Shown: positions 14,354 through 60,808 of the stretch, piece by piece | How the letters are laid out: every line of letters starts with the position of its first letter | Position numbering within the stretch: position 1 is the stretch's first letter | Assembly (NCBI GenBank): GCA_016700415.1 | Contig: CP065018.1 | Location: forward strand, 2,869,284 to 2,933,283 | Length of the DNA: 64,000 nucleotides | Direction of reading: 5' to 3' | Origin: Flavobacteriales bacterium | GTDB lineage: Bacteria > Bacteroidota > Bacteroidia > Flavobacteriales_F > PHOS-HE28 | The notes under the pieces: generated by a model | What the model was told of the DNA's origin: nothing | Databases searched by the model: none | The model's input: the letters and a program-made list of their open reading frames with translations, nothing else | Position numbers and translations under genes: made by a program

Positions 14354-17155
14354 ATGATCAAGAACTACGCCTTCGTCCTCACGGCCTTGTTAATAGTCTC
14401 CCAAGCCACCGCCCAACCCGCCTTCACCGATGGCACCGCGATGCTGGGCCACACGGCCAACAGCGGTGGTTGCATGGCCGTCACGGACATGGACGGCGAC
14501 GGCCTGGACGATGTGGTGCAGTTGGATTTCGGTACACATGTCTACGTGCTCTATCAAGAGACCGACGGTAGCTTTACCACCGTGGACTACGGCTCTTTGG
14601 ACAATAGTTCCCAATGGGGCTGGGCCATCGGCGATCTGGACAACGACGGGCATAAGGACATCTGCGGCGGGGCCACCGGCCAACAGAATTTCCTCAGCAT
14701 CACCGCACGTGGGGTCTCCAGCTTCAGCAATTTGGACGGTCCGTCCATCTTCACCCAGTGCATGAGCATGGGCGACATGAACAATGACGGCCGGACGGAC
14801 ATTTTCGCCTGCCATGACAATGGGCCGCCCAACATCTGGTTCACCAATGCCAGCGGTGTCCCGGTGAACAGCAACAGCTACATCGATTGGAGCACCTCTC
14901 CTTCCAGCGACATGAGCGGGAACTATGGGAGCTGCTTTGTCGATTTCGACAACGATGGCGACCTCGACCTGTACATCGCACACTGCCGCCAAGGGGTGAA
15001 CAGTTCGGATGACCCACGCCGTTGGAACCGCTTGTTCGTCAACGACGGCACCAACCATTACACGGACCAAGCTGCTGAATATGGCGTTCAGGACCACGAG
15101 CAGACCTGGACATCCGATTTCGGGGACTACGACAATGACGGCGATCTGGACATGTTCAGCAACGAACACAGCACGGGTACGCAACTGTTCGAGAATGACG
15201 GGACGGGACACTACACGAACGTCACCGCCGGAAGTGGATTGGGCGTAGCAAGTTTCCCGCTACAGGGCATGTTCCGGGACATGGACAACGACGGCTTTCT
15301 GGACATCCTGATCGCCGGCGGAAGTGAATTTTATTACAAGGGCAATGGCGATGGGACCTTCACCCTGGTTGAAGGTCTGTTCCCCTCTTCCAAGGCCATG
15401 CACGGCTTTGCCTTCGGCGACCTCAACCGGGATGGCTTTGAGGATGTATATGCCAACTATGGCAGCGGCTATGTGGATGGCAGTGCCGGCAACCCGGACC
15501 GTCTCTGGCTGAACACGCCCAACGGCAATCACTTCTTCCGCGTGCGGCTGCAAGGCACCACCAGTAACCGGGATGCTATCGGCGCGCGCGTCACTATCAC
15601 CGGCCCGTGGGGCACGCAGATCCGTGAGGTGCGCTCCGGCGAGAGCTATGGCCTGGTGAACTCCTTCATCCTGCCCTTCGGTCTGGGAGCGGAGACCATT
15701 GTGCCGACGGTGACCGTGCGCTGGCCCAGCGGTCTGGTGGAGACCTTCAACGATCTGAACGCCGACCAGACCATCACCGTGGTGGAAGGCACCTGCGTCT
15801 CGCCGAACGTGGCCATTTCGGCCTCGCCTTCCGCCATCATCTGCCCCAGCAGCGGCCCTGTTCTGCTGACCGCCTCGCCGGGAACCGACTTCACGTGGAA
15901 CACAGGTGCCACAGGACCGACCCTCAGCGTGGACCAAGCGGGTGCCTATTGGATCATGACCGGCACCGGCACCTGCACCACCCAAGCGAACGTGAACGTG
16001 CTGGAGAGCCCGGATGAGACGCCCACCGTATCCGCCGCAGGTCCCACCACGATCTGCCCCTTGGATCAGGTGGTGCTCACCGCCAGTCCGGCATCCGGTT
16101 ATCTGTGGAGCAATGGAAGTGACCAGCAGAGCATCACGGTCAGTGCGGCCGGTAATTACACGGTGACGATCGAAGGAGCCTGCGCCGCGTTCACCTCGGA
16201 ACCCGTGGAGGTGACCCTGCTCAATGCGCCCGCCGCACCGATGAGCGAGGATGTGTCGATCCCCGTGGCCGGCACCGCGGTGCTCACCGCCACGGGCGAC
16301 AGCATTATTTGGTATGATGCGGAGGTGGACGGTACTCCCGTGGGCTATGGCAGCCCGTGGACCACGCCGTTCGTGGACACGAACACCCTCTTCTGGTGCT
16401 CGGACCTGGGCCAGAACGGCGGTGTGCCGCAGTATGGAGGAAAGACGGACAAGTCCGACATCGGGACCTACCAGAACAACGCCACGTACTACAACTATTT
16501 CAGCACCTACGAGGACATGGTGATCAAAAGTGCCAAGGTCTACGCGAACGGTGCCGGTGAGCGCCCGATCGCCGTCGTGGACCAGGGAACAGGCAACATA
16601 GTGGCCTCGGGGAACTTCTTCATCCCGGACGGTGAGAGCCGGGTGCAATTGGACCTGTTGGCTCCGGGCGGCGGCGCGTACGCCTTGCGGATCGTTTCCG
16701 GCGACCCGCAGCTTTGGCGCGATGGGGTTGGTAGCAACCCGGTATACCCGTACGACCTGGGCGGCTTAGGCGCGATCACGGGCTGCAACGCCGGTTCGGC
16801 CAATTACTACTACTACTTCTACAATTGGGAAGTTGCCTCGCCGGCTTCTTGGTGCGAAGGACCACGGACGCCGGTGGAAGTGCTGGTCGGTCCCACGGGC
16901 GTGGCGCCCGATGGTCAGGCCGAGGGCCTGCGTGTCTTCCCGAACCCGGCCACCGACAAGGTCACCATCTCCGGTAAACTGCCCGAAGGTGCTGCCACCG
17001 CGGAGTTCCTGGACGTGGCCGGCCGTGTCTGCCTCCGCGCCGCGATCACTCCCGCTGGTGTAACGATCGATGTTTCCTCCTTGGCCCCCGGTGCCTACAC
17101 CTTGCAATTACGCGGGGAAGATGGCATCAGCAACACGGCTTTCGTGAAGCGTTGA
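14354..17155 (+). CDS. FG-GAP/VCBS-repeat, ASPIC-UnbV (CRTAC1-like) secreted protein with a T9SS C-terminal sorting domain
   Basis: Signal peptide present. Seven DxDxDGxxD calcium-binding FG-GAP repeats. UnbV_ASPIC motif (RDAIGARVTITGPWGTQIREV). Ig-like repeats. C-terminal FPNPATDKVTIS...GAYTLQL matches the type-A T9SS CTD. Confidence 0.85.
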   Translation: MIKNYAFVLTALLIVSQATAQPAFTDGTAMLGHTANSGGCMAVTDMDGDGLDDVVQLDFGTHVYVLYQETDGSFTTVDYGSLDNSSQWGWAIGDLDNDGHKDICGGATGQQNFLSITARGVSSFSNLDGPSIFTQCMSMGDMNNDGRTDIFACHDNGPPNIWFTNASGVPVNSNSYIDWSTSPSSDMSGNYGSCFVDFDNDGDLDLYIAHCRQGVNSSDDPRRWNRLFVNDGTNHYTDQAAEYGVQDHEQTWTSDFGDYDNDGDLDMFSNEHSTGTQLFENDGTGHYTNVTAGSGLGVASFPLQGMFRDMDNDGFLDILIAGGSEFYYKGNGDGTFTLVEGLFPSSKAMHGFAFGDLNRDGFEDVYANYGSGYVDGSAGNPDRLWLNTPNGNHFFRVRLQGTTSNRDAIGARVTITGPWGTQIREVRSGESYGLVNSFILPFGLGAETIVPTVTVRWPSGLVETFNDLNADQTITVVEGTCVSPNVAISASPSAIICPSSGPVLLTASPGTDFTWNTGATGPTLSVDQAGAYWIMTGTGTCTTQANVNVLESPDETPTVSAAGPTTICPLDQVVLTASPASGYLWSNGSDQQSITVSAAGNYTVTIEGACAAFTSEPVEVTLLNAPAAPMSEDVSIPVAGTAVLTATGDSIIWYDAEVDGTPVGYGSPWTTPFVDTNTLFWCSDLGQNGGVPQYGGKTDKSDIGTYQNNATYYNYFSTYEDMVIKSAKVYANGAGERPIAVVDQGTGNIVASGNFFIPDGESRVQLDLLAPGGGAYALRIVSGDPQLWRDGVGSNPVYPYDLGGLGAITGCNAGSANYYYYFYNWEVASPASWCEGPRTPVEVLVGPTGVAPDGQAEGLRVFPNPATDKVTISGKLPEGAATAEFLDVAGRVCLRAAITPAGVTIDVSSLAPGAYTLQLRGEDGISNTAFVKR

Positions 17156-17241
17156 TTCCGGATGCATCCTCCACAAGAAGCCCTGGAACCCCCGGAGCTT
17201 TTTGCTGTCCGACCAAGGCGATCAGGTGGTTACTTTGCGGC

Positions 17242-17904
17242 ATGACCGACCAGGTGGACGAACAGCAACCGCTGAGGCTGCTCATAGTGGGCGCAGGGGC
17301 CCTCGGGAATGCATTGCTGCCGCGCGTCCTGCGCTGGAAATGGGACGGTATCACCATCATGGACGGTGATCGGGTGGAGGAGAAGAACTTGGTACGGCAA
17401 GAGCTCTTTGCACCCGTGGACATCGGCAGGCCGAAGAGTGATGTACTGGCGGCCTGGGTCCGCAACATGCCCGTTCCGGTGCACATGGCGTCCCGGGATG
17501 AATTCCTTGATGCGAACAACGCCGAAGCGCTCATTGCCGTGCACGACGTGGTGGCGGACTGTACGGACGATGCACATGTGAAGCGGTTGATCGACCGCAC
17601 CTGTGCTGAGTACGGCGTGGCGTTGGTGAGCGGGTCCGTCCACGGAAAGGAAAGTCAGGTGATCCTTTTGCACGCGGAAGGGGAGGACGAAAAGATCACG
17701 CGTGATGAGCTCTTCCATGGCAGACCCGGCGGGGAGCAGGACGGTTGCGACATGCGGAACGTGCCGATGGAGACCATCGAGGAAACAGGCCGGCGCATGG
17801 CACAACTGCTGCGCGCCGTGCGACAAGGCGAACCCGTGAAGAACGGCCGCATCGACCTCTTCGACGGTAAACGTTGGACCGCGATCGATCCCCCGGACCA
17901 CTGA
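17242..17904 (+). CDS. moeB: ThiF/MoeB/HesA-family E1-like adenylyltransferase; short and without zinc CxxC motifs or a rhodanese domain
   Basis: LLIVGAGALGN Rossmann motif and DxDxV..NL.RQ nucleotide motif. It is the first gene of the Moco cluster. The start was set at the internal ATG at 17242. Confidence 0.7.
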   Translation: MTDQVDEQQPLRLLIVGAGALGNALLPRVLRWKWDGITIMDGDRVEEKNLVRQELFAPVDIGRPKSDVLAAWVRNMPVPVHMASRDEFLDANNAEALIAVHDVVADCTDDAHVKRLIDRTCAEYGVALVSGSVHGKESQVILLHAEGEDEKITRDELFHGRPGGEQDGCDMRNVPMETIEETGRRMAQLLRAVRQGEPVKNGRIDLFDGKRWTAIDPPDH

Positions 17905-17907
17905 AAG

Positions 17908-18636
17908 ATGGACAGCACCTTGTTGATCCTCCTGATCGCCTTCGTCGCCTTCGCCTACGCCATGGTGGGCCACGGCGGTGCCAGTGGCTACCTCGCGTTG
18001 ATGGCATTGGCGGGCATGTCCGTGGTGGTGATGCGCCCCACCGCGCTGGTATTGAACCTCTTCGTCAGCGCCATCTCCTTCACGCTTTACGCGCGTTCAG
18101 GCCATTTCAAATGGAGCACCTTCTGGCCCTTCGCGGTACTGTCGATCCCGGCGGCGTGGCTCGGCGCGCACGTCGTGCTGGACCCCGTGATCTACAAGCG
18201 TATCCTTGCGGTCTGCCTGCTCTTTGCGGTCGCCAAGCTCTTCGGCTTTTTCGGAAAAGGCAAGGATGGCCTACGGCCCATCCCGTTGGTCTGGGGCTTG
18301 CTGATCGGCTCGGCGCTGGGCTTCGTCTCCGGCATGATCGGCATCGGTGGCGGCATCCTGTTGAGCCCGGTGCTACTGCTCTTCAATTGGGCGGACATGA
18401 AGACCACGGCGGCCACCTCGGCGCTCTTCATCTTCGTGAACAGCGCGGCCGGTATCGTGGGCGCTTTCGGCAACGGTGAAACGTTGGGCACGGAGATGGT
18501 GCCGTGGATCATCGCGGCAGTTCTGGGCGGTCTGCTCGGCAGTTGGATCGGCGCGAAGCGGTTGAACGAACTGCGCTTGAAGCAGGCCCTGGGCATCGTC
18601 CTCCTATTCGCCAGCGTGAAACTGATGATGGCATGA
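17908..18636 (+). CDS. TauE/SafE (DUF81) family anion-export membrane protein
   Basis: About eight TM helices with duplicated GxGGG motifs (MVGHGGASG, MIGIGGGIL). It is embedded between moeB-like and moeA with 4-nt spacings or overlaps on both sides. Confidence 0.8.
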   Translation: MDSTLLILLIAFVAFAYAMVGHGGASGYLALMALAGMSVVVMRPTALVLNLFVSAISFTLYARSGHFKWSTFWPFAVLSIPAAWLGAHVVLDPVIYKRILAVCLLFAVAKLFGFFGKGKDGLRPIPLVWGLLIGSALGFVSGMIGIGGGILLSPVLLLFNWADMKTTAATSALFIFVNSAAGIVGAFGNGETLGTEMVPWIIAAVLGGLLGSWIGAKRLNELRLKQALGIVLLFASVKLMMA

Positions 18637-19805
18637 TCGACGTGAAGGAGGCGAAGCGGCGTTTGATGGCCAACGTGCTGGTGATGCCCACGGAAGCCGT
18701 GCCGTTGCTCAATGCATTGGGCCGTTTTGCGGTGAACGACGTGGTCGCGCCATTCGATCATCCGCTGTTCGATTGCAGCGCGATGGACGGCTATGCGTTC
18801 AGGTTTTCCGAAGAGGTGAAGGCATGGACCGTGGTCGGCGAAGTGCCCGCCGGGGATGCTTTTTCACGCGGACTTCAAGCGGGTGAATGCGTACGCATCT
18901 TCACCGGGGCCATGATGCCTGAAGGTGCGGACACCGTGGTGATGCAGGAACTCGCGCAACGTTCCGGTGAGGCGATGACCCACACGGACGTGAAGTTGAA
19001 ACGCGGCGGCAACGTGCGCTGCAAGGGCGAGCAGTTGCGCACGGGTGATGTGGCCTTGCTGAAAGGAACGCCGCTGGATGCGCCCGCGATCGGGCTGTTG
19101 GCTTCGGTCGGTGTGCAGGAGGTGCTTGTGGCGAAGCGGCCGCGCGTGGCCTTGCTGATCAGCGGTGATGAATTCGCCGAGGGCGCGGTCCCTTCGCCGG
19201 GGAAGATCTTCGGGACCAATGGCATGATGTTGCAGGCGGCCTTGCGCAACGCGGGGATCGAGGCAAGCCTCGTGCAGGTCAATGATGACCGCGAAGCGTT
19301 GATCGCTGCATGGAAGCAAGCAGCCAAGGCACATGATCTCGTCATCTCCACCGGTGGGGTGTCCGTCGGTGATCATGACCTGATCCGGCCCGCCTTGGAA
19401 GCGCTCGGAGCGGAGTTCATCCTTCACGGCGTGAAGCAGAAGCCGGGCAAACCGATGCTCTTTGCGAAGCTCGACGGCACGCCGGTCTTCGGCCTGCCCG
19501 GCAATCCCCGCGCGGTGATGGTGCTGTTCGGTGAATACGTGCTGCCCTTCCTGCGGGCCATGCAAGGAGCAGCGGATCCCGGTCCATGTATTGAGCATCT
19601 TCCGATCGAACAAGCGTTGAAGGTCAAAGGAGACCGGGCGGAATTCCGCGCGGCGCTCGTGACGGAAGGGAGAGTGAAATTATTGGCCGACGAAGGCTCG
19701 CACATGCTGCGATCGCTCACCGAAGCAAATGCATTGGCGTTCATCCCGGCCGATGTGCGGGAGTTTAAAGCAGGGGACACGATCGAAGTACACCACATCC
19801 GGTGA
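18633..19805 (+). CDS. moeA: molybdopterin molybdenumtransferase
   Basis: The MoeA N-domain (FDCSAMDGYAF) and the MoCF-biosynthesis domain (GGVSVGDHD) are present. ATGA overlap with the tauE-like stop. Confidence 0.9.
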   Translation: MIDVKEAKRRLMANVLVMPTEAVPLLNALGRFAVNDVVAPFDHPLFDCSAMDGYAFRFSEEVKAWTVVGEVPAGDAFSRGLQAGECVRIFTGAMMPEGADTVVMQELAQRSGEAMTHTDVKLKRGGNVRCKGEQLRTGDVALLKGTPLDAPAIGLLASVGVQEVLVAKRPRVALLISGDEFAEGAVPSPGKIFGTNGMMLQAALRNAGIEASLVQVNDDREALIAAWKQAAKAHDLVISTGGVSVGDHDLIRPALEALGAEFILHGVKQKPGKPMLFAKLDGTPVFGLPGNPRAVMVLFGEYVLPFLRAMQGAADPGPCIEHLPIEQALKVKGDRAEFRAALVTEGRVKLLADEGSHMLRSLTEANALAFIPADVREFKAGDTIEVHHIR

Positions 19806-20374
19806 TGGGAAGCAAATACGCATGGACCGGGGTGGTGCTCGCTGGTGGCAAGAGCACGCGCATGGGGCAGGACAAAGCGCTGCTGGAAGTGAACGGGAAA
19901 CCGTTGCTGCTTCACGCCGTGGAGAAATTGAAGCCGCATGTGCGCGAGCTCTTCGTGATCGGGGAACCGCGCAAGTATGGCCACATCTGGCCGGACGTCA
20001 TGCCGGATGATATCCCCGGCCTGGGACCCTTGGGCGGCATCGTGACGGCCATGGGCAACGCACGGCACGACCGCTTGCTGGTGCTGGCAGTGGACGCGCC
20101 CGGTGTGAACGCGAGGTTGCTGGAACGTCTCACCCGCGAACTGCCGGATGACGCCGATGCCTTGGTGCCGCGCCACGACGACGAATTGGAGCCCTTGGTC
20201 GCCGCGTATCATCGGCGGTGTGCCGGTGCCTTCATGGACCACATCACACGCAGCCAGCTTTCCATGCACGGAGCCTTGGCTGATGTCAACGTGGCTTACT
20301 TAGACATCAAGCCCGGTGATGACGGCTGGCCGGAGGACCTCTTTTGCAACCTCAACAGTCCTGCCGACCTTTGA
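19802..20374 (+). CDS. mobA: molybdenum cofactor guanylyltransferase
   Basis: GVVLAGGKSTRMGQDKALL nucleotidyltransferase motif. GTG/ATG start overlapping the moeA stop. Confidence 0.85.
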   Translation: MMGSKYAWTGVVLAGGKSTRMGQDKALLEVNGKPLLLHAVEKLKPHVRELFVIGEPRKYGHIWPDVMPDDIPGLGPLGGIVTAMGNARHDRLLVLAVDAPGVNARLLERLTRELPDDADALVPRHDDELEPLVAAYHRRCAGAFMDHITRSQLSMHGALADVNVAYLDIKPGDDGWPEDLFCNLNSPADL

Positions 20375-20377
20375 GCC

Positions 20378-20602
20378 ATGGACATCATGCTTTTTGGATT
20401 GATCGCGGAGAAGGCCGGGACTGATCGGCTAACCATCTCGGCACCGGATACGGGCGCGTTAAGGCAAGCCTTGGAAGAACGCATCGAAGGACTTTCATCG
20501 CTGAGCTATGCGCTGGCCGTGGACCGGAAGATCACGCATGAAAATATTGAACTGAGCGGCAGCGAGGAGATCGCGCTGCTGCCCCCATTTGCAGGAGGAT
20601 GA
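20378..20602 (+). CDS. moaD: molybdopterin synthase sulfur-carrier subunit
   Basis: 74 aa, beta-grasp-sized, ending in the Gly-Gly carboxy terminus (...PPFAGG). Confidence 0.8.
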   Translation: MDIMLFGLIAEKAGTDRLTISAPDTGALRQALEERIEGLSSLSYALAVDRKITHENIELSGSEEIALLPPFAGG

Positions 20603-21069
20603 GCGAAACCAAAGCGCCCAAGAAACGGGACATCTTCACTGATGGTCCGATCGATCCGACCTTCATCGCGGAGAGCATCGCGAAGCACGCCACGCGCCAT
20701 GACATCGGCGCGCACGAGATCTTCCTGGGCCAGGTACGGGCGGACATGGCGGACGGTTCGGGCGGAAGATCTTCCGCCCGTACAACCGCCATCGCATACA
20801 CCGCTTACCGCGACATGGCCAACGAACAGATGATCCCCATCCGCGAAGAAGCCTTCGCACGCTGGCCCATCACTTGCTTGCACGTACACCACAGCCAAGG
20901 CATCATCAAGGCCGGTGAGCTATGCTTCTTCGTCTTTGCCTCATCGGCGCATCGCCAGGTAGCGCGCGAGGCCGTGGCCTATGTCACGGATGAAGTGAAG
21001 AAGCGCCTACCGATCTTCGGGAAGGAGGTTTTGGAGGATGGGGAGCATGTATGGAAGATAAATACATGA
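20599..21069 (+). CDS. moaE: molybdopterin synthase catalytic subunit
   Basis: Overlaps the moaD stop (ATGA). Length and conserved core (HDIGAHEIFLGQVR...) fit MoaE. Confidence 0.85.
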   Translation: MSETKAPKKRDIFTDGPIDPTFIAESIAKHATRHDIGAHEIFLGQVRADMADGSGGRSSARTTAIAYTAYRDMANEQMIPIREEAFARWPITCLHVHHSQGIIKAGELCFFVFASSAHRQVAREAVAYVTDEVKKRLPIFGKEVLEDGEHVWKINT

Positions 21070-21169
21070 TGATATCCCGCAGTGGTGACCGGTAGTTGGT
21101 GATAGGTGATCAGAACCGATCCGCGCCCAATCACCAATCACTATCCACCAATCACCCGACCAAACTCCG

Positions 21170-22093
21170 TTGCCTATGATCGACATCACACACAAGCCTA
21201 CCTCCCTCCGCGAAGCCATCGCCGAGGCCACCGTTAGCGTTAGCAAGCCGGAAACGATCGCAGCGGTGAAAGCCGGGACCGTCCCCAAGGGTGACGTGAT
21301 CGAAGCCGCACGCATCGCCGGTCTCTTCGGCATCAAACGCACCGCGGACATGATCCCGGACTGCCATCCTTTGCCAGTGGAACACGCCGAGGTGACCAGC
21401 AGCGTCCAGGAAATGGCCATCGTGGTCACTGTGAAAGTGCGGACCATCTACCGCACCGGTGTGGAAGTGGAGGCCATGCACGGCGCCAGCGTGGCAGCGC
21501 TCACCATCTACGACATGCTTAAGCCGATCGACAAGGGCATCACCATCGACCGCATCCGCTTGGTGGGGAAGAAGGGTGGCAAAAGCGATTGGAAAGATCA
21601 GTTCGACAAGATGCCAAGCGCTGCCGTGCTCGTCATCAGTGACAGCGTTTCAGCGGGCAAGAAGGAGGACAAGGCCGGAAAGACGATCGGTGAACGGTTG
21701 AAGACGCTCGGTGTGGAGTTCGCTGCAAATGCGCTGGTACCGGATGAGCCGGAGCAGATCGCCGCACAGGTGAAGGCATGGGCGGAGCAGGGCATCGACC
21801 TTATCCTCACCACCGGCGGCACGGGCCTCTCACCACGTGATCGCACGCCGGAAGCCATCGCACCTATTCTCGACCGCGAAGTGCCTGGTGTCATGGAGGC
21901 CGCACGCAGCTACGGCCAAGAGCGCGTGCCCCTCGCCATGATGAGCCGCGGCATCGCCGGGATGATCGGTCGTACGTTGGTGATCACCCTGCCGGGATCA
22001 ACAAGAGGTGCGCAAGAGACGATGGACGCGCTTTTCCCGTTCGTACTGCATGTGGTCAAAGTGCAGGAGATGGCGTATCGGCACGGTATGTAG
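21170..22093 (+). CDS. moaC: bifunctional cyclic pyranopterin monophosphate synthase (MoaC) / MogA-MoaB-type molybdopterin adenylyltransferase fusion
   Basis: The N-terminal ~150 aa are MoaC (MHGASVAALTIYDM). The C-terminal ~150 aa are MogA/MoaB (LVISDSVSAG...LILTTGGTG). Confidence 0.85.
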   Translation: MPMIDITHKPTSLREAIAEATVSVSKPETIAAVKAGTVPKGDVIEAARIAGLFGIKRTADMIPDCHPLPVEHAEVTSSVQEMAIVVTVKVRTIYRTGVEVEAMHGASVAALTIYDMLKPIDKGITIDRIRLVGKKGGKSDWKDQFDKMPSAAVLVISDSVSAGKKEDKAGKTIGERLKTLGVEFAANALVPDEPEQIAAQVKAWAEQGIDLILTTGGTGLSPRDRTPEAIAPILDREVPGVMEAARSYGQERVPLAMMSRGIAGMIGRTLVITLPGSTRGAQETMDALFPFVLHVVKVQEMAYRHGM

Positions 22094-24791: not shown

Positions 24792-25790
24792 TCACCCCCC
24801 GATGCTCACCATAGGTCTGCTGCTCAGATCGTGCAGCACTTCTTCCTGCTTGTCCAAATTGAACTGAGGTAATCCTCCCAGCATCTTGTGCTTCGCCAGC
24901 ACGTTCGCTTCGATCAAGGAGGAAACATCCTCACCGCTGCGCAACGCTGAAAGCAGGTCGGTCTCCTCGCGGGCGAAGAGGCAGTTGCGCAGCTTGCCTT
25001 CCGCCGTCAGGCGCAGGCGATCGCAGTTTCCGCAGAAGGGCTCGGTCACTGTGCTGATCACCGCGAAGGTGCCTTGCCAGCCTTTCACGCGGTAGGCCTT
25101 GGCGGTGCTGTGCGGGTCGTCGTCGAGCTTTTCGATCGTGTGCGCGCTGCCGATGCGGCCGAGCATTTCGCTGTACGTGTACACGCGCTCACGGCCCCAC
25201 AGATTGCCGGCGAAGGGCATGAACTCGATGAAACGCACATGCACCGGCCGGTCACGGGTAAGCTCCGTGAAGCGCAGCAGCTCATCATCGTTCACGCCGC
25301 GCATCACAACCATGTTCAGCTTCACGTGCAGGCCGCGATCGATCGCCTGTTCGATGTTCGCCAGCACGCGGTCGTGGCCATCGCGGCGGGAGAGGGTGCG
25401 GAAGCGCTCCGCATCAAAAGTATCCAAGCTGATGTTGACGCTCTTCAATCCGGCGGAGATCAGCTGGTCCAGGAAGAGGTGCAGGCGCGTCGCATTGGTG
25501 GTCAATCCCAGCTTCACCGGCAGTTGCGCCATGTCACGGACGAGATCCACCACGTCCGGCCGCATCAATGGTTCACCGCCTGTCAGTCGGATCTTAGTGA
25601 TGCCGTATTGCTCCACGAAGAGCTTTGCCAGTGTGCGGATCTCTTCCCGCGTCATCAGCTCATCGCGTTTCAGGAACTGCTGATCCTCGGGCATGCAGTA
25701 GGTGCAGCGCAGGTCGCACTTGTCCACGATGCTGATGCGCAGGTTGCGATGGGTGCGGGAATAGCGGTCGGTAAGCAAAGTCATGACCAT
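24792..25790 (-). CDS. moaA: GTP 3',8-cyclase
   Basis: Radical-SAM CDLRCTYCMP motif, a second C-terminal 4Fe-4S cysteine cluster (CGNCDRLRLTAEG), and a GG tail. Start at the internal ATG at 25790; the ORF upstream of it is antisense to tag. Confidence 0.9.
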   Translation of the reverse strand: MVMTLLTDRYSRTHRNLRISIVDKCDLRCTYCMPEDQQFLKRDELMTREEIRTLAKLFVEQYGITKIRLTGGEPLMRPDVVDLVRDMAQLPVKLGLTTNATRLHLFLDQLISAGLKSVNISLDTFDAERFRTLSRRDGHDRVLANIEQAIDRGLHVKLNMVVMRGVNDDELLRFTELTRDRPVHVRFIEFMPFAGNLWGRERVYTYSEMLGRIGSAHTIEKLDDDPHSTAKAYRVKGWQGTFAVISTVTEPFCGNCDRLRLTAEGKLRNCLFAREETDLLSALRSGEDVSSLIEANVLAKHKMLGGLPQFNLDKQEEVLHDLSSRPMVSIGG

Positions 25791-25877
25791 GCAAAGGTAC
25801 CGTGGTGTGGTCGGGACCGCCCGGACATTCTTCCGGCCCCTGTTATGGATGCCGGGGGATCCCCGAACTTCGCCTCC

Positions 25878-26450
25878 ATGAAGCCCGATGAAAAGGTGCG
25901 CTGTCCGTGGTGCCTGAAGGACGACATATACAAGCGTTATCATGATGAGGTCTGGGGCGTACCCGAGCATGACGACCGCAAGCTCTTCGCGAAGCTGATC
26001 TTGGATGGAGCGCAGGCGGGCCTGAGCTGGTATACCATTCTGATCCGTACGGAGAGCTATGCGAAGGCGTACAACAATTGGGACGCCAAAAAAGTCGCGC
26101 GCTATGGCGAGAAGGACGTTGAGCGCTTGATGAACGACGCAGGCATCATCCGCAACCGCTCCAAGATCATGGCCTCCATCAGTAATGCACAGGCGTATTT
26201 GAAGATCATGGAGGACGGCCCCGGCTCTTTCGATCGCTTCTTGTGGAAGCATGTACACGGCAAGACCAAGGTGAACAGGGTGAAGCAGATGAGCGATGTG
26301 CCTGTGTCCACGCCCGAAAGCGATGCCATGAGCAACGACCTGAAGAAGCATGGTTTCAAATTCACGGGCACCACCATCGTGTATGCGTTCATGCAGGCCT
26401 GCGGCATGGTGGACGACCATATGGTGACGTGCTGGAGAAAGAAGGGGTGA
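25878..26450 (+). CDS. tag: DNA-3-methyladenine glycosylase I
   Basis: Near-collinear with E. coli Tag (RCPWC..., YHDEVWGVPEHDDRKLF, GTTIVYAFMQACGMVDDH). Confidence 0.9.
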   Translation: MKPDEKVRCPWCLKDDIYKRYHDEVWGVPEHDDRKLFAKLILDGAQAGLSWYTILIRTESYAKAYNNWDAKKVARYGEKDVERLMNDAGIIRNRSKIMASISNAQAYLKIMEDGPGSFDRFLWKHVHGKTKVNRVKQMSDVPVSTPESDAMSNDLKKHGFKFTGTTIVYAFMQACGMVDDHMVTCWRKKG

Positions 26451-26455
26451 AGAAG

Positions 26456-27307
26456 ATGCGCACACCAGTGTCTCCTATACAGATCACACGCGTCGAACAT
26501 GGTTCGGCTACAGTGACCGATGATATCCTTGTCAGCGAAGAACCCTTGGAGATCCGCCTTGGCCATGGCCCGGAGGAGGACCGCAAGGAGATACAGCTGA
26601 GCGTAACCATGCGTACGCCGGGGAACGATGAGGAGCTGGCGATGGGATTTCTTTTCACCGAAGGCCTTGTCACGGACATGTCCCAAGTGCTGCGCGTGGT
26701 ACCGTGCGAGAACGTGAAGGAAGAGGAAAGGGGCAACGTAGTGCGTGTGGAACTTCATCCGGCCGTTGAGATAGAGCCTGCGAAGTGGCAGCGCAACTTC
26801 TACACCAGCAGCAGTTGCGGTGTATGCGGGAAGACCAGCATCGGCGCCGTGCATACGCAATGCGCACGGCCCATTGCCCCGTTCGGACCGATCGATCCGA
26901 AGGTGATCACCGCACTGCCCGGCCGCATGCGCGAAGCGCAGACCGTCTTCAAGCATACCGGAGGCATCCACGCGGCCGCACTTTTCGATCGCGAGGGTAA
27001 GCTGCTGATCCTGCGGGAGGACGTGGGCCGCCACAATGCCGTGGACAAGGTGATCGGAGCCTTGTTGCTGTCTACGCGCTCCCAGCCGGGGATCGGCCCC
27101 GGACAACTGACAACTGACAACTACCAACTCCTCGTAAGCGGCCGCGCCGGCTTCGAGCTCGTTCAGAAATGCCTCATGGCCGGAATTCCGATGATGGCCG
27201 CCGTGGGCGCACCTTCTTCATTGGCCGTACAGCTGGCGAAAAAAGGAGGGCTAACGCTGGTCGGCTTCCTGTCCGGGGAGCGCTTCAACGTCTACTCAGG
27301 CGGGTAG
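26456..27307 (+). CDS. fdhD: formate dehydrogenase accessory sulfurtransferase
   Basis: FdhD/NarQ family core, including the conserved cysteine in SSCGVCG and the GRHNAVDK motif. Confidence 0.85.
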   Translation: MRTPVSPIQITRVEHGSATVTDDILVSEEPLEIRLGHGPEEDRKEIQLSVTMRTPGNDEELAMGFLFTEGLVTDMSQVLRVVPCENVKEEERGNVVRVELHPAVEIEPAKWQRNFYTSSSCGVCGKTSIGAVHTQCARPIAPFGPIDPKVITALPGRMREAQTVFKHTGGIHAAALFDREGKLLILREDVGRHNAVDKVIGALLLSTRSQPGIGPGQLTTDNYQLLVSGRAGFELVQKCLMAGIPMMAAVGAPSSLAVQLAKKGGLTLVGFLSGERFNVYSGG

Positions 27308-27397
27308 CGCTTATTGGTAAGGAATCCTGATGATCGTCAGGATGCACCGTTTCCGGGCCGGATAACTTGCACCCTCATTTTGAAGGACGGATCGGAC

Positions 27398-27829
27398 ATG
27401 GACAACACCCCCCCGGAAAAGGCCTCTGGGCAGCCGCGCGAAAAGGGTGACATCCGGACGATCGAGGACGTTCGCCTCTTGGTGGACACGTTTTATGGCC
27501 GCGCCCGCTTGGATGAGCTGGTAGGCCCCATCTTCAACGATACCATCCAGGACCGTTGGCCGGAGCACTTGGCCAAGCTCTACAACTTCTGGCAGACCAT
27601 CCTCTTGGGGCAGCACACCTACAACGGAAGCCCTTTTCTGCCACACGCGAAGCTTCCGATCGATAAGCGCCACTTTGACCGTTGGTTGCAGCTTTTCCAC
27701 GGTACGTTGAGCGATCTTTTTGAAGGTCCCACGACCGAGGAGGCCAAACAACGCTCGGTGATGATGGCGCAGATGTTCCAATTCAGAATGGCCGAGCACG
27801 CGCGTGCTGGTACCACACCCGTCCGCTGA
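27398..27829 (+). CDS. group III truncated haemoglobin (Ctb-like)
   Basis: The tract FYGRARLDELVGPIFND...LYNFWQTILLGQHTYNGSPF...WLQLFHGTL aligns with the group III trHb helices B-H. A TTG further upstream opens the ORF; the first ATG is at 27398. Confidence 0.72.
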   Translation: MDNTPPEKASGQPREKGDIRTIEDVRLLVDTFYGRARLDELVGPIFNDTIQDRWPEHLAKLYNFWQTILLGQHTYNGSPFLPHAKLPIDKRHFDRWLQLFHGTLSDLFEGPTTEEAKQRSVMMAQMFQFRMAEHARAGTTPVR

Positions 27830-28308
27830 TGACGGTGGTGAAGCATCCGGTCGCTCTGGTCGCGGTGTTCACGTGGCTTGGGCTCGTTGTGGGGATCGCC
27901 TTCATGGCCTCCTGGCTCAAGTACCGCGCTTTCGGGGTTTCCCTTCCCGTGGGTGCGGGCATCGACATGAAGCTGCTACCCGCGTTGCTGCGGGTGGAGT
28001 GGGTGCTGGCCTTGGCCATTGTGGCCGATCTGCTCTTGGGCAAGTCCTCTATGCTCATGCTCGCCCTGGTCGCGGTCCCGTTGCTTTTGCTCGCCGTCCA
28101 GACCCTTTGGCTTCAACCGGCCATGGACGCCGACGCCTTGCTGGTGTTCCATGGACAGAGCGGTGCAGGCACCGGTCTTCGGACGGTGAATACCGCAGTG
28201 GAGGCCGTGAAGGTCACTGCGCTGGCCGCGCTGGGCGTCGCACAATTCTCACGCCTATCAACCCGCGCCGGGGACCCGGCGATCAACGACCAAAACACAC
28301 GATCATGA
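27829..28308 (+). CDS. hydrophobic membrane protein (4-5 TM; DUF4149-like)
   Basis: Starts with a 1-nt overlap on the trHb stop and ends with an ATGA overlap on the RIC start. Strongly hydrophobic; no catalytic motifs. Confidence 0.5.
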   Translation: MTVVKHPVALVAVFTWLGLVVGIAFMASWLKYRAFGVSLPVGAGIDMKLLPALLRVEWVLALAIVADLLLGKSSMLMLALVAVPLLLLAVQTLWLQPAMDADALLVFHGQSGAGTGLRTVNTAVEAVKVTALAALGVAQFSRLSTRAGDPAINDQNTRS

Positions 28309-29039
28309 AGATCACACCCGAACGGACCGTGGGGTCCATCGTCGCCGAGGATTATCGTGCGGCGGCCGTGCTCACCAAGTACGGCATTGACTTCTGCTGC
28401 AAGGGCGGCCGCTCCGTGCAGGAAGTTTGCGAGAACAAGAACATCGACCAGAACAAACTGGCCGAGGATATCACCACACTTCTGGCCCGTGATGCCAAGA
28501 GCGGTGACGATGCCCGCACCTGGCCCTTGGACCAGCTCGCGGACCATGTGGAGACGGTACACCACCGGTACGTGGAGGAGCGCGGACCGATCATTCAACA
28601 GTACTTGGCCAAGCTCTGCAGGGTGCATGGCGAGCGCCATCCGGAGCTGTTCACGATCAATGATGAGTTCAACGCTTGTGTGGGGGCCATGGCCTCACAC
28701 ATGAAAAAGGAGGAGCTGGTGCTCTTCCCCTTCGTGCGCAACCTGGCCAAGAGCGAGCGTAGCAATGAGCCGTTCAAGACACCGCACTTCGGAACGGTGG
28801 AGAACCCGGTTAACATGATGATGGAGGATCACGTCGCCGAGGGCGAGCGCTTCGAACGCATGGGTGCCGTCAGTGACAGCTTCACCCCGCCAGCGGACGG
28901 ATGTGCCACATATGCCACGGCCTTCAGCATGCTGAAAGAGTTCGAGGAGGACCTGCACCTGCACATTCACTTGGAGAACAACATCATGTTCCCCCGTGCG
29001 ATAGCGTTGGAGAGGAGCTTGGCGCATGTCGCCAATTAA
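28305..29039 (+). CDS. ric: iron-sulfur cluster repair di-iron protein (RIC; YtfE/ScdA family)
   Basis: The N-terminal ScdA_N domain (TVGSIVAEDYRAAAVLTKYGIDFCCKGG) is followed by a hemerythrin-like di-iron domain with H...HHxxEE...H...HxxxE ligands. Confidence 0.85.
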   Translation: MKITPERTVGSIVAEDYRAAAVLTKYGIDFCCKGGRSVQEVCENKNIDQNKLAEDITTLLARDAKSGDDARTWPLDQLADHVETVHHRYVEERGPIIQQYLAKLCRVHGERHPELFTINDEFNACVGAMASHMKKEELVLFPFVRNLAKSERSNEPFKTPHFGTVENPVNMMMEDHVAEGERFERMGAVSDSFTPPADGCATYATAFSMLKEFEEDLHLHIHLENNIMFPRAIALERSLAHVAN

Positions 29040-29493
29040 GCGACTTCCTGAACTACAGGGGATCAGCCGTGAGCACCACGACGGGCTCCTGCTGAGCTGG
29101 AAGATCAGGGCGGGCACCGCGAAAGGCGTGGCGCCCGCCCGCATACGCCGTTATTGCAGACGTTTTCTCCGGGAACAGCTCAAACCTCATTTCAACATCG
29201 AGGAAAGCGTGCTGTTCCCCGTCCTCGGCATGGATCATCCCGGCGTGCGCAAGGCCATGGCGGAGCACCGGCGCCTACAGCGGTTGATCAATGGCAACAG
29301 TGATGCGGTGGTGGCCGTGGCTTTGGTCGAGGAGGAACTGGAGGCGCACATCCGTTTTGAGGAACGGCATCTGTTCAACCTGATCCAGAAGGCGGCTACG
29401 CCGGAGCAGCTCGCGGAAATTGAGCGGGCGCATGCGGACCTGCCCCAGCAGGAGGCCAAGGGAGGCAAGCCGGAGGACGTATTCTGGGAGTGA
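29026..29493 (+). CDS. hemerythrin HHE cation-binding domain protein
   Basis: Overlaps the RIC stop by 14 nt. His/Glu ligand spacing (EHHDGLL..., HFNIEESVLFP, EHRRL, HIRFEERHLF). Confidence 0.7.
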   Translation: MSPIKRLPELQGISREHHDGLLLSWKIRAGTAKGVAPARIRRYCRRFLREQLKPHFNIEESVLFPVLGMDHPGVRKAMAEHRRLQRLINGNSDAVVAVALVEEELEAHIRFEERHLFNLIQKAATPEQLAEIERAHADLPQQEAKGGKPEDVFWE

Positions 29494-29500
29494 CCGCTGC

Positions 29501-29911
29501 TCAGCGGATCTTCAACAGCCAAGCGTGGCTCTGAGCACCGTCCGAGCTGATCCAGAAATAGCACAAGTAGGCTCCGGGATCTTTCAGCAGGGCCGCCAGT
29601 TCCGGATGTTCCTGGCTCGGATAGCACAGATGGAGACGCCCCTTTTCCTTGTCTAACCAAGGTGCCGGGGTTAGATCCGGGGTTTCCGCGATGGTGATCA
29701 AGGCGCTTTTTACGATACTGTGCTTGGAGCCGGGGGAGCCTTTGAAGAGCAATAGCTCCGGATGTTTACGCGAGCGGCGTTTGATGCTCAGTACTTCCAC
29801 ATGGCCGAAGGACCGAAGCGCCTTCCCGTCGGTGGCGGGCTGGTCATGGATCATAGGTGCTAAGGCCGAGGCCGGGTCCGACATGGGGCGATGATCTGAA
29901 CGATGCCCCAA
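29501..29911 (-). CDS. hypothetical protein
   Basis: Convergent with the hemerythrin gene (an 8-nt gap between the stops). Several possible starts (29911/29884/29854). No recognised motifs. Confidence 0.35.
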   Translation of the reverse strand: MGHRSDHRPMSDPASALAPMIHDQPATDGKALRSFGHVEVLSIKRRSRKHPELLLFKGSPGSKHSIVKSALITIAETPDLTPAPWLDKEKGRLHLCYPSQEHPELAALLKDPGAYLCYFWISSDGAQSHAWLLKIR

Positions 29912-40288: not shown

Positions 40289-40352
40289 ATGTGAACCGGC
40301 AATTGCGGGAGCGATGACCTCGATCCGTAAGGCTGACCCCGGTTCTTCTTCC

Positions 40353-41153
40353 ATGACATCGCCCACCACGCTCGCTTCCATCCACATCTACCCGGTCAAA
40401 TCCTTAGGTGGATTTTCTGTTCCGGACATACGCTTGACGGACAGAGGTTTGGAGCACGATCGCCGCTGGATGCTGATCGATCCCGATGGCCGGTTCCTGT
40501 CGCAACGGGAATGCCAGGCCATGGCATGCCTGCATTGCGCAGCGCACGGTAACGGGTTCCGTGTCACCGATGTGCGGAATGGGAATACGGTCGATGTACC
40601 GTGGTCTCTTCAGGAGGCGGAACGCGTCAAGGCCAAAGTCTGGGACGATGATGTAGACCTGATGCTCGGCCCTGCTTTCATGCATCAATGGTTCAGCGAA
40701 ACCCTGCAACGCCCGGTGCGACTGGCCTACATGCCAGACAGTACGGTGCGCACCACGGACCCGACCTACGCCGATGTCCCCGTGGCGCTCAACGACGGTT
40801 ATCCGTCCCTGATCATTTCGCAAGCCTCGTTGGACGACCTCAATGCGCGGCTGGGAACACCGGTGCGGATGGACCGCTTTCGCCCCAACTTCGTAATTAC
40901 AGGCGGCGCGCCGTTCCAAGAGGATGATTGGAAAACCATCATCATCGGCGAGACGCACTTCAACATCGTGAAACCCTGCGCGCGTTGCGTCATCATCACC
41001 ACGGACCAGCGAACGGGCGAGCGCTCGAAAGAGCCCTTGCGAACGTTGGCCACCTTTCGCTCCGTGGGGAACAAGGTGCGTTTTGGGATGAATGCGACAT
41101 TTGCTGAAATGGGGACGATCCATGTCGGTGTCCCCGTGCAGGTGAACGCATGA
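40353..41153 (+). CDS. MOSC domain-containing protein (YcbX-like, Moco-dependent)
   Basis: MOSC N-terminal beta-barrel (IHIYPVKSLGG) and MOSC domain with the conserved cysteine (VKPCARCVIITTDQRTGER). Confidence 0.8.
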   Translation: MTSPTTLASIHIYPVKSLGGFSVPDIRLTDRGLEHDRRWMLIDPDGRFLSQRECQAMACLHCAAHGNGFRVTDVRNGNTVDVPWSLQEAERVKAKVWDDDVDLMLGPAFMHQWFSETLQRPVRLAYMPDSTVRTTDPTYADVPVALNDGYPSLIISQASLDDLNARLGTPVRMDRFRPNFVITGGAPFQEDDWKTIIIGETHFNIVKPCARCVIITTDQRTGERSKEPLRTLATFRSVGNKVRFGMNATFAEMGTIHVGVPVQVNA

Positions 41154-49624: not shown

Positions 49625-50068
49625 TCATACAAAATACTTGAGGTCGTATTCAACACCATGGTCCGCCAACAGGCTGAGCAATTCTTCCTTGTATGTCCGT
49701 GTGCCGTGGTGTTCCTCTTGCCGATCGATGTAGCTCCTTATCATCTCCCGCTCCCGATGGCTTACGGTAAAGGCGGCGTAGCCTTCCTGCCAGTGGAAAT
49801 TCCGCAGCCCGACCTCGTCGCGCAACCAGACGGTGGATGCCTTTTTCAACTCTCTCACGATATCTGAAAGGACGTGGGTGGCTTTAAGCCCAAAGAGCAG
49901 ATGCACGTGGTCGTTCCAGCCACCGGTGTTCTGTGGGAATCCGCCAAGACCTTTTATCGTTCCGCCCATGTAGCTGTGCAATTGATCTCGCCATTTCCGG
50001 TCAAGACAGGGCACTCGGTTTTTAGTGGAAAAGACCACATGGTAATGCAGGCTGAGGTAGGTGGACAT
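49625..50068 (-). CDS. rayT: REP-associated tyrosine transposase (RAYT; IS200/IS605-like Y1 HuH)
   Basis: 147 aa. YHVVFSTKNR N-terminus, the HuH motif in NDHVHLLF, and the catalytic Tyr region EGYAAFTV. Flanked by REP palindromes. Confidence 0.85.
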   Translation of the reverse strand: MSTYLSLHYHVVFSTKNRVPCLDRKWRDQLHSYMGGTIKGLGGFPQNTGGWNDHVHLLFGLKATHVLSDIVRELKKASTVWLRDEVGLRNFHWQEGYAAFTVSHREREMIRSYIDRQEEHHGTRTYKEELLSLLADHGVEYDLKYFV

Positions 50069-60085: not shown

Positions 60086-60634
60086 TTAATACGGCTCCAA
60101 TTTAAGCAGACCCGGCTTTCCTGCAATGGCCGGTGCTGAGCTGTAAACGTAATCCTCCGCCTGTTCCACATAACCCTCCACCGCCGGGTTATCGTGCAAG
60201 TAATTCAACTTCTGCGTGATCACCTCCCCAGAGATCAACTGTACGGGTCGATCGTCTTGTCGCCAAAACTGGTAATGCATGTTGTTCGAGTTGGCCGCGC
60301 CGGCCTTGGCAAAGATCGGCAGCATCCATTCCTTGCGGCTCTCTTGGTTGTTATCTGCAATGGCCTTTAAGATCTGCGAGGATGTGAATTTCTTGAGGTC
60401 CCGCAGGATGTCCGGCAAGGCATGGCCTTCTGCCGCCGCCGCGATCAAATGCACATGGTTGCTCATGATCACCCAGGCGTACAACAGCAGGCCTTTCTTC
60501 TCCTGGCAATGTCTCAGGCTGTCCACAATGATGTCCTTGTATTCGCGCCGAGTGAACACGTCCACCCACTCGACGGTGGCGAAGGAAATGAAGTAGGTTC
60601 CTTCGGGATCGTGGAACTTGTAGCTACGGCTCAT
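60086..60634 (-). CDS. tnpA: IS200/IS605-like Y1 (HuH) transposase, Bacteroidetes 'TnpA_REP' type
   Basis: 183 aa. MSRSYKFHDPEGTYFISFATVEWVDVFTRREY..., the HuH motif in SNHVHLI, and the catalytic Tyr in YVYSS. Confidence 0.85.
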   Translation of the reverse strand: MSRSYKFHDPEGTYFISFATVEWVDVFTRREYKDIIVDSLRHCQEKKGLLLYAWVIMSNHVHLIAAAAEGHALPDILRDLKKFTSSQILKAIADNNQESRKEWMLPIFAKAGAANSNNMHYQFWRQDDRPVQLISGEVITQKLNYLHDNPAVEGYVEQAEDYVYSSAPAIAGKPGLLKLEPY

Positions 60635-60713
60635 GCAGCTCCGAAGGTAGTTCCGTGCGGCAGTCTGAAGACTGCCGGAAGCTTCCGTGCCTTTATCGGC
60701 TTCTGAGCGTATG

Positions 60714-60808
60714 CCCACAAGTCGCCCCGGCCTGTATGGTCAGGAGCCATGCCTGCGGCAGACAGGCTCACTTTACCGTTGGGCCGGGAAGACTTGCGGG
60801 AGCTTTGG
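60714..60808 (-). repeat. hairpin repeat copy 2 (inverted; right end of the IS200-like element)
   Basis: gcccacaagtcgccccgg ... ccgggaagacttgcgggagc is the reverse complement of the copy-1 arms, with a longer internal loop. Confidence 0.6.

Follow-up and report, generated by a model that had tools for sequence, protein, structure and literature searches.

Nitric oxide (NO) defenses that co-regulate a globin with a RIC protein are described for the NsrR (Rrf2) regulons of Proteobacteria and Firmicutes, which include hmp, ytfE (dnrN) and hcp, while the globin genes of Campylobacter are monocistronic and are not known to have membrane, RIC or hemerythrin partners. Group III truncated globins are represented by a solved structure, but to our knowledge their physiological role is not settled and no partner has been described for them. 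The NsrR, NorR and NssR regulons have RIC genes and globins at their core (PMC1274295), and in Campylobacter the Crp/Fnr-type regulator NssR activates the globin gene cgb through a TTAAC-N4-GTTAA box (PMC1274295). The Campylobacter jejuni globin Ctb mainly supports microaerobic growth and moderates respiration, and its part in NO metabolism is secondary (PMC9686644). Here we analyze a 64,000-nt stretch of the genome of a Flavobacteriales bacterium (contig CP065018.1; the whole stretch is referred to below as the window), in which four genes on one strand, at positions 27398-29493, encode a group III truncated hemoglobin, a membrane protein, a RIC and a stand-alone hemerythrin, in that order. 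We propose that this cassette is probably a translationally coupled NO/O2-stress operon with its own regulated promoter. What is new about it lies almost entirely in the pairing of the globin with the membrane protein. For the rest, it consists of well-known stress genes, and that such an operon exists is unsurprising.

In the cassette, as in the NssR regulon of C. jejuni (cgb, ctb), a group III truncated globin gene has ahead of it an FNR-like inverted repeat, the type of site through which Crp/Fnr-family activators turn on globin genes in response to nitrosative stress (PMC1274295), whereas the box reads CTGAT-N4-GTCAG in the window and TTAAC-N4-GTTAA in Campylobacter. As in the NsrR regulons, a globin and a RIC would be co-regulated as an NO defense, and most of the equivalent Bacteroidota clusters likewise have an Rrf2 gene together with an operator that overlaps the promoter. 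In contrast to those regulons, the globin is of the 2-on-2 group III type and not a flavohemoglobin, the genes lie in what appears to be one coupled operon, and the clade to which the window belongs (the window clade) has neither the Rrf2 gene nor the operator. Relative to both the NsrR and the NssR defenses, the globin is hard-wired to an uncharacterized membrane protein, and a RIC and a second hemerythrin follow. A full-text literature search, beyond the reach of which many subscription papers lie, found no description of such an operon, in agreement with the original prediction made from the DNA letters.

The identities of three of the four proteins are clear. The globin passes the Pfam model for bacterial truncated globins (Bac_globin, PF01152; 34.5 bits, cut-off 21) and its best match among solved structures is C. 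jejuni Ctb (2IG3, E 1.1e-19), while matches to the other groups are far weaker (E 0.07-0.12 for the best of group II, 2BKM and 1UX8, and of group I, 3AQ5). Residues Y33, H57, H83 and W96, which align with identical residues in 2IG3 and which we take from the Ctb structure to be TyrB10, HisE7, HisF8 and TrpG8, are invariant in 42 globins from equivalent clusters, and NCBI labels an identical 143-aa protein from an uncultured Flavobacteriales bacterium 'group III truncated hemoglobin'. Proteins identical to those encoded in the window are on record as HQV37693.1 and HQV37694.1 (locus tag IPH00_02805). By sequence comparison the globin thus belongs to group III. A longer globin reading frame starting from TTG at 27314 was dropped, as the ATG at 27398 is the start used in the orthologues and by NCBI. 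The RIC scores above the trusted cut-off of equivalog TIGR03652 (219.4 versus 204.7 bits) and consists of a ScdA_N domain (PF04405, residues 6-59) followed by a hemerythrin domain (PF01814, residues 84-232). It can be aligned from end to end with ScdA (9R7J, E 1.5e-30) and YtfE (5FNN, E 2.7e-23), and its ligand motifs of the HxxxE and DH types (HMKKEE, DH and HIHLEN) align with those of 9R7J. The last protein is a single HHE domain (PF01814, 48.3 bits versus a cut-off of 25.3). The Ctb-like globin, the YtfE/ScdA-type RIC and the stand-alone hemerythrin of the original prediction are all borne out by these profile and structure matches, with groups I and II reached by the globin only at E ≥ 0.07.

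The original prediction also placed the four reading frames on one strand with overlaps of 1, 4 and 14 nt, and the coordinates and overlaps are as it claimed (Table 1). The globin and membrane genes meet in TGATG, the membrane and RIC genes in ATGA, and the 14-nt overlap joins RIC to hemerythrin. Third-position G+C (GC3) lies at 0.75-0.80 in all four genes, which is of the coding type, rich at third and poor at second positions as expected in a genome of 60% G+C. Identical overlaps recur in the orthologous loci L008, L009, L091 and L093, where the membrane protein is 65-83% identical, and overlaps are kept in orthologues down to 60% identity. These are real genes, and their overlapping arrangement is not due to chance.

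Table 1. Genes of the cassette, candidate promoter elements ahead of it, and candidate operator ahead of Rrf2 genes in related clusters.
Feature	Position	Strand	Remarks
Globin (group III Ctb/trHbP-like truncated hemoglobin, 143 aa)	27398..27829	+	ATG 27398, TGA 27829
Membrane protein, 159 aa, four transmembrane helices	27829..28308	+	ATG 27829, TGA 28308
RIC (YtfE/ScdA-type di-iron protein, 244 aa)	28305..29039	+	ATG 28305, TAA 29039
Stand-alone hemerythrin (HHE) domain protein, 155 aa	29026..29493	+	ATG 29026, TGA 29493
Palindrome CCTGATGATCGTCAGG	27326..27341	.	Candidate Crp/Fnr-family operator; no other exact match in the window
Candidate Bacteroidetes-type -7 element TAACTTGC	27363..27370	+	28 nt upstream of the globin ATG
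Palindrome GGAYAAAnTTTGTCC	about 40-70 nt upstream of the Rrf2 start		L016, L024, L026, L027, L033, L041, L046, L052, L053, L055, L063, L064, L068, L074

The membrane protein of the window matches nothing in Pfam or NCBIfam, and a word-based search recovers just 22 relatives. An exhaustive profile search, on the other hand, returned 2002 cluster representatives at E ≤ 1e-3, of which 1349 remain at E ≤ 1e-10, which by sequence makes the protein a divergent member of a large unnamed family of roughly 145-aa proteins. Public records list the family as hypothetical, and UniRef sometimes uses the name 'DUF4149 domain-containing', including for some Bacteroidota members. The protein is like the DUF4149/TMEM205-like proteins in size and in having four transmembrane helices, but neither it, even at E ≤ 1, nor its closer Bacteroidota relatives match DUF4149 (PF13664), a model reached at E ≤ 1 by 27 of 70 family members and by one of them above the gathering score (29.6 versus 24.6 bits). 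Because only some distant family members match PF13664, we regard the window protein, on profile evidence, as a remote relative of DUF4149 and not a member. The literature search, with the same restriction of reach, yielded no description of a function for bacterial DUF4149 or DUF4149-like proteins. AlphaFold2, run on the family alignment, predicts a four-helix transmembrane bundle (residues 7-31, 39-70, 75-107 and 115-144; mean pLDDT 91, pTM 0.83), and a comparison of this model with solved structures gave no significant structural relative. Five residues (W16, G18, K31, E57 and K128) are invariant across the family.

How closely the gene for this protein is linked to the globin gene becomes apparent from a scan of one genome per species, which gave 80 loci encoding the membrane protein, mostly in Flavobacteriales, Chitinophagales, Cytophagales and Sphingobacteriales, with single loci from Verrucomicrobia, Ignavibacteria, Acidobacteria, Gammaproteobacteria, Chlamydiae and Actinobacteria. 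At 46 of the 73 loci with upstream DNA available the immediate upstream gene on the same strand encodes a group III-type globin, and at five further loci the globin lies near the membrane gene or on its other side. The globin stop and the membrane start overlap at 35 of 48 junctions (33 of them as ATGA), and the gap is at most 26 nt at 42 of the 48; such overlaps span several Bacteroidota orders and include one verrucomicrobial and one gammaproteobacterial genome. Downstream of the membrane gene, RIC is among the first three genes in 42 of 69 loci, and a stand-alone hemerythrin gene is among the first four in 28 of 69, where it often shares nucleotides with the end of RIC. Conservation of the four genes together in relatives had been named beforehand as one of the points on which the original prediction could fail, and the genes are indeed kept together. 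The cassette is common in public Bacteroidota genomes and is not peculiar to the window.

The clusters vary in several ways. Between the membrane gene and RIC there may be a gene for a tryptophan-dioxygenase-like heme protein (21 loci), a small cupin (13) or a methyltransferase (8). The first of these, at L013:6430-7329 and in 20 other loci, resembles tryptophan-2,3-dioxygenase (TDO) at 101 bits, well under the 390 bits that the TDO equivalog requires. Two unannotated families of small proteins recur immediately ahead of the globin: 134-aa proteins with a C-terminus resembling a hydrophobic anchor (L012:1352-1753; 15 loci), and hydrophobic proteins of about 110 aa that are probably membrane-embedded (L014:5256-5579; 10 loci). 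Some homologues of the membrane protein are encoded apart from the usual partners. One locus without a globin, L085, has the order HemN-like gene, membrane gene, fatty-acid desaturase, PNP oxidase; L051 has the same order from the membrane gene onward, its upstream DNA not being on the contig. The group of L089 and L090 includes Streptomyces smyrnaeus, with an NsrR-like Rrf2 gene directly upstream of the membrane gene, and a metagenome-assembled Pyrinomonadaceae genome with the order NorB, membrane gene, globin. The metagenomic contig L007 (6400-8700) encodes a membrane protein identical to that of L006 but has no intact RIC or hemerythrin genes and a fragmented LepA, which points either to decay of the cluster or to faulty assembly.

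The spacer between fdhD and the globin gene contains what we consider to be the promoter of the cassette. Seven orthologous spacers align with a mean column identity of 46%, and two invariant islands stand out, CCTGA-N6-TCAG and GGTAaCTT(T)GC, with no gap between them and at fixed spacing. The second island would be the -7 element, the Bacteroides consensus being TAnnTTTG; relatives carry TACCTTTG at this site. The first island belongs to a palindrome, CCTGA-N6-TCAGG, with a TGA-N6-TCA core, in which 13 of 16 positions are invariant in the seven spacers (13 of 15 from CCTGA to TCAG) and whose center lies a constant 29.5 bp upstream of the TA of the -7 element. It reads CTGAT-N4-GTCAG in the window and CTGAT-N4-ATCAG in L006, which is FNR-like when set beside the FNR/DNR box TTGAT-N4-ATCAA (PMC1274295). 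A sigma-70 promoter scan of the spacer found nothing, as expected in Bacteroidota. An RNA element in the spacer was considered and rejected, as its RNA gives no fold signal (z +0.38 to -0.70).

Most relatives appear to use a different regulator. An Rrf2-family gene is the immediate upstream gene in 24 of 58 cases and lies within 6 kb in 50 of the 80 loci, and the example in L016 has three closely spaced cysteines. Where the Rrf2 gene heads the cluster it is preceded by the conserved palindrome GGAYAAAnTTTGTCC, with a TAnnTTTG -7 box a short way downstream. Such a layout is that of a repressor controlling its own gene, and the palindrome is a candidate operator for a Bacteroidota NO/redox repressor of the Rrf2 family. 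In the window this operator was not found (one match with three mismatches occurs elsewhere in it, versus four by chance), the window has no Rrf2 homologue, and a nearby Rrf2 gene is also missing in the window clade. The original prediction had suggested looking for NsrR/Rrf2- or Crp/Fnr-family motifs upstream of the cassette, and of these it is the FNR-like box, not the Rrf2 operator, that is present. The same cassette thus seems to be placed under two regulatory inputs, an Rrf2 operator in most Bacteroidota and an FNR-like box in the window clade.

We propose the following mechanism for the window. A Crp/Fnr-family sensor, encoded outside the window, would respond to NO or to low O2 by analogy with NssR, DNR and FNR, bind the CCTGA-N6-TCAGG box and, from a position near -41.5, switch transcription on rather than repress it. 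The four genes would be read as a single mRNA, with translation re-initiating in coupled fashion across the TGATG, the ATGA and the 14-nt overlap. The Ctb-like globin would bind O2 and NO and consume or buffer NO, RIC would restore Fe-S clusters damaged by NO or oxidants, and the hemerythrin would provide a second di-iron function in handling O2, NO or iron. The role of the membrane protein is the most conjectural of all, and it may work with the globin, probably by placing or servicing it at the respiratory membrane. We infer the part of the cassette in nitrosative stress from gene context and from what is known of the protein families: NorB-like genes (quinol NO reductase) occur near six loci and L001, and a distant homologue of the membrane protein adjoins genes for DUF2249, an alternative oxidase and a cupredoxin. 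As for the NO/oxidative-stress module of the original prediction, the individual gene calls and the context fit it, judged from sequence and analogy, while the closer link of Ctb to O2 counts against a role confined to NO.

A more specific possibility, which we put forward only tentatively and think somewhat doubtful, is that the globin and the membrane protein are the two obligate subunits of a globin system bound to the membrane. One of them, the membrane protein, would tether the globin to the respiratory chain and serve as a conduit for electrons, gas or anions, and the same membrane family would serve other O2/NO enzymes in lineages that lack the globin. If so, this would supply the missing physiological partner of Ctb-type globins. 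Even apart from that possibility, the coupling of the membrane gene with that of the globin, seen in dozens of species of which some are cultivable, points to a concrete candidate partner for group III globins, and the NO/O2-stress setting that we propose would be the first functional context for an unnamed membrane family of more than 2000 sequence clusters.

Several observations weigh against an NO/O2-stress operon with its own promoter. The established role of Ctb concerns O2 more than NO. The palindrome by itself is not rarer than chance, with two matches at up to one mismatch in the 64 kb versus 2.3 expected, and it is therefore for its conservation and not for its rarity that we take it as a candidate operator. 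Its center comes to lie near -41.5, the geometry of a class II activator, when calculated on the assumption of the usual -7 position. There is no terminator between fdhD and the globin gene, so that read-through from fdhD is possible, and neither phmmer with Rrf2 and CRP seeds nor Pfam on ten small or regulator-sized reading frames (132-301 aa) brought up a Crp/Fnr or Rrf2 gene in the window. In the relatives, the Bacteroidota Rrf2 proteins reach the Rrf2 superfamily model only and not the NsrR equivalog. As to the globin-membrane pair, the window clade has replaced nine of 16 further residues that are near-invariant in the membrane family, including H118R and R102D, and a mirror-tree comparison over 34 species gave a correlation of 0.47 for globin and membrane protein versus 0.48 for globin and RIC and 0.57 for membrane protein and RIC. 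The mirror-tree thus gives no sign of extra co-evolution between globin and membrane protein, and the test does not discriminate.

The main rival is a role in oxygen management, which is compatible with the NO reading but which we think unlikely to be the better account. Here an FNR-type low-O2 signal would induce a globin of very high affinity together with a hemerythrin, both of them buffering O2 or delivering it at the membrane, clusters damaged by oxidation would be repaired by RIC, and the membrane protein would couple the globin to terminal oxidases. Such a role agrees with the microaerobic growth and moderation of respiration ascribed to Ctb (PMC9686644) and with the likeness of the box to the FNR consensus TTGAT-N4-ATCAA. 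The company that membrane-protein homologues keep also suits it: those of the globin-less L051 and L085 stand beside the O2-dependent fatty-acid desaturase and PNP oxidase, in L085 after HemN, and another stands beside the alternative oxidase. Against this, the clusters of most species are headed by an Rrf2 regulator of the cluster type and some adjoin NorB, and regulons that respond to NO classically include RIC genes (PMC1274295).

It is improbable that the cassette has no promoter of its own and is co-transcribed with fdhD for the maintenance of Moco (molybdenum cofactor) and Fe-S cofactors, the palindrome being an RNA hairpin or a weak terminator. The order tag-fdhD-cassette is found in all nine clade loci fetched, the site between fdhD and the globin gene has nothing terminator-like, and the window palindrome folds as an 8-bp hairpin. 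Yet adjacency to fdhD (6 of 91 loci, and three fetched later) is limited to the window clade, and fdhD is not in the cluster at any of the 80 scan loci. The spacer has no folding advantage over shuffled sequence, and the minimum-energy fold of L006 does not contain the hairpin. Within the palindrome the inner positions differ between spacers with no compensating changes, CTGA and TCAG being invariant. No run of T follows, and the conserved -7 box stands downstream at fixed spacing. That the four genes are mere neighbors of unrelated function, with the membrane protein irrelevant to the globin, is already very unlikely, since the conserved stop/start overlaps, across several Bacteroidota orders and beyond the phylum, and the recurrence of RIC and hemerythrin downstream in the same order outweigh the indifferent mirror-tree and the fact that we know of no such membrane partner for Ctb in Campylobacter.

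The original prediction also noted that the cassette lies downstream of fdhD and a Moco cluster, which is the case: fdhD occupies 26450-27307, and the Moco biosynthesis genes at 17152-22093 encode a ThiF/MoeB-like protein, a TauE-like exporter, MoeA, MobA, MoaE and a MoaC-MoCF fusion. They are followed on the opposite strand by MoaA (24795-25784, -) and then by the gene for 3-methyladenine glycosylase (Tag; 25869-26447). Near the Moco cluster, no molybdoenzyme gene that could account for fdhD lies within 27 kb upstream. The only candidate Moco/fdhD client among the reading frames scanned is encoded 11 kb downstream (40314-41153) and is a protein with MOSC_N and MOSC domains, a Moco-dependent type of enzyme. 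Two IS200/Y1-transposase-like reading frames lie at 49625-50068 and 60086-60718, both on the minus strand. Just beyond the cassette, a reading frame of 136 aa without a family match (29501-29911, -) converges on it, 7 nt from the hemerythrin stop, and L009 and L091 have unannotated reading frames of 126-127 aa at the corresponding place on the same strand.

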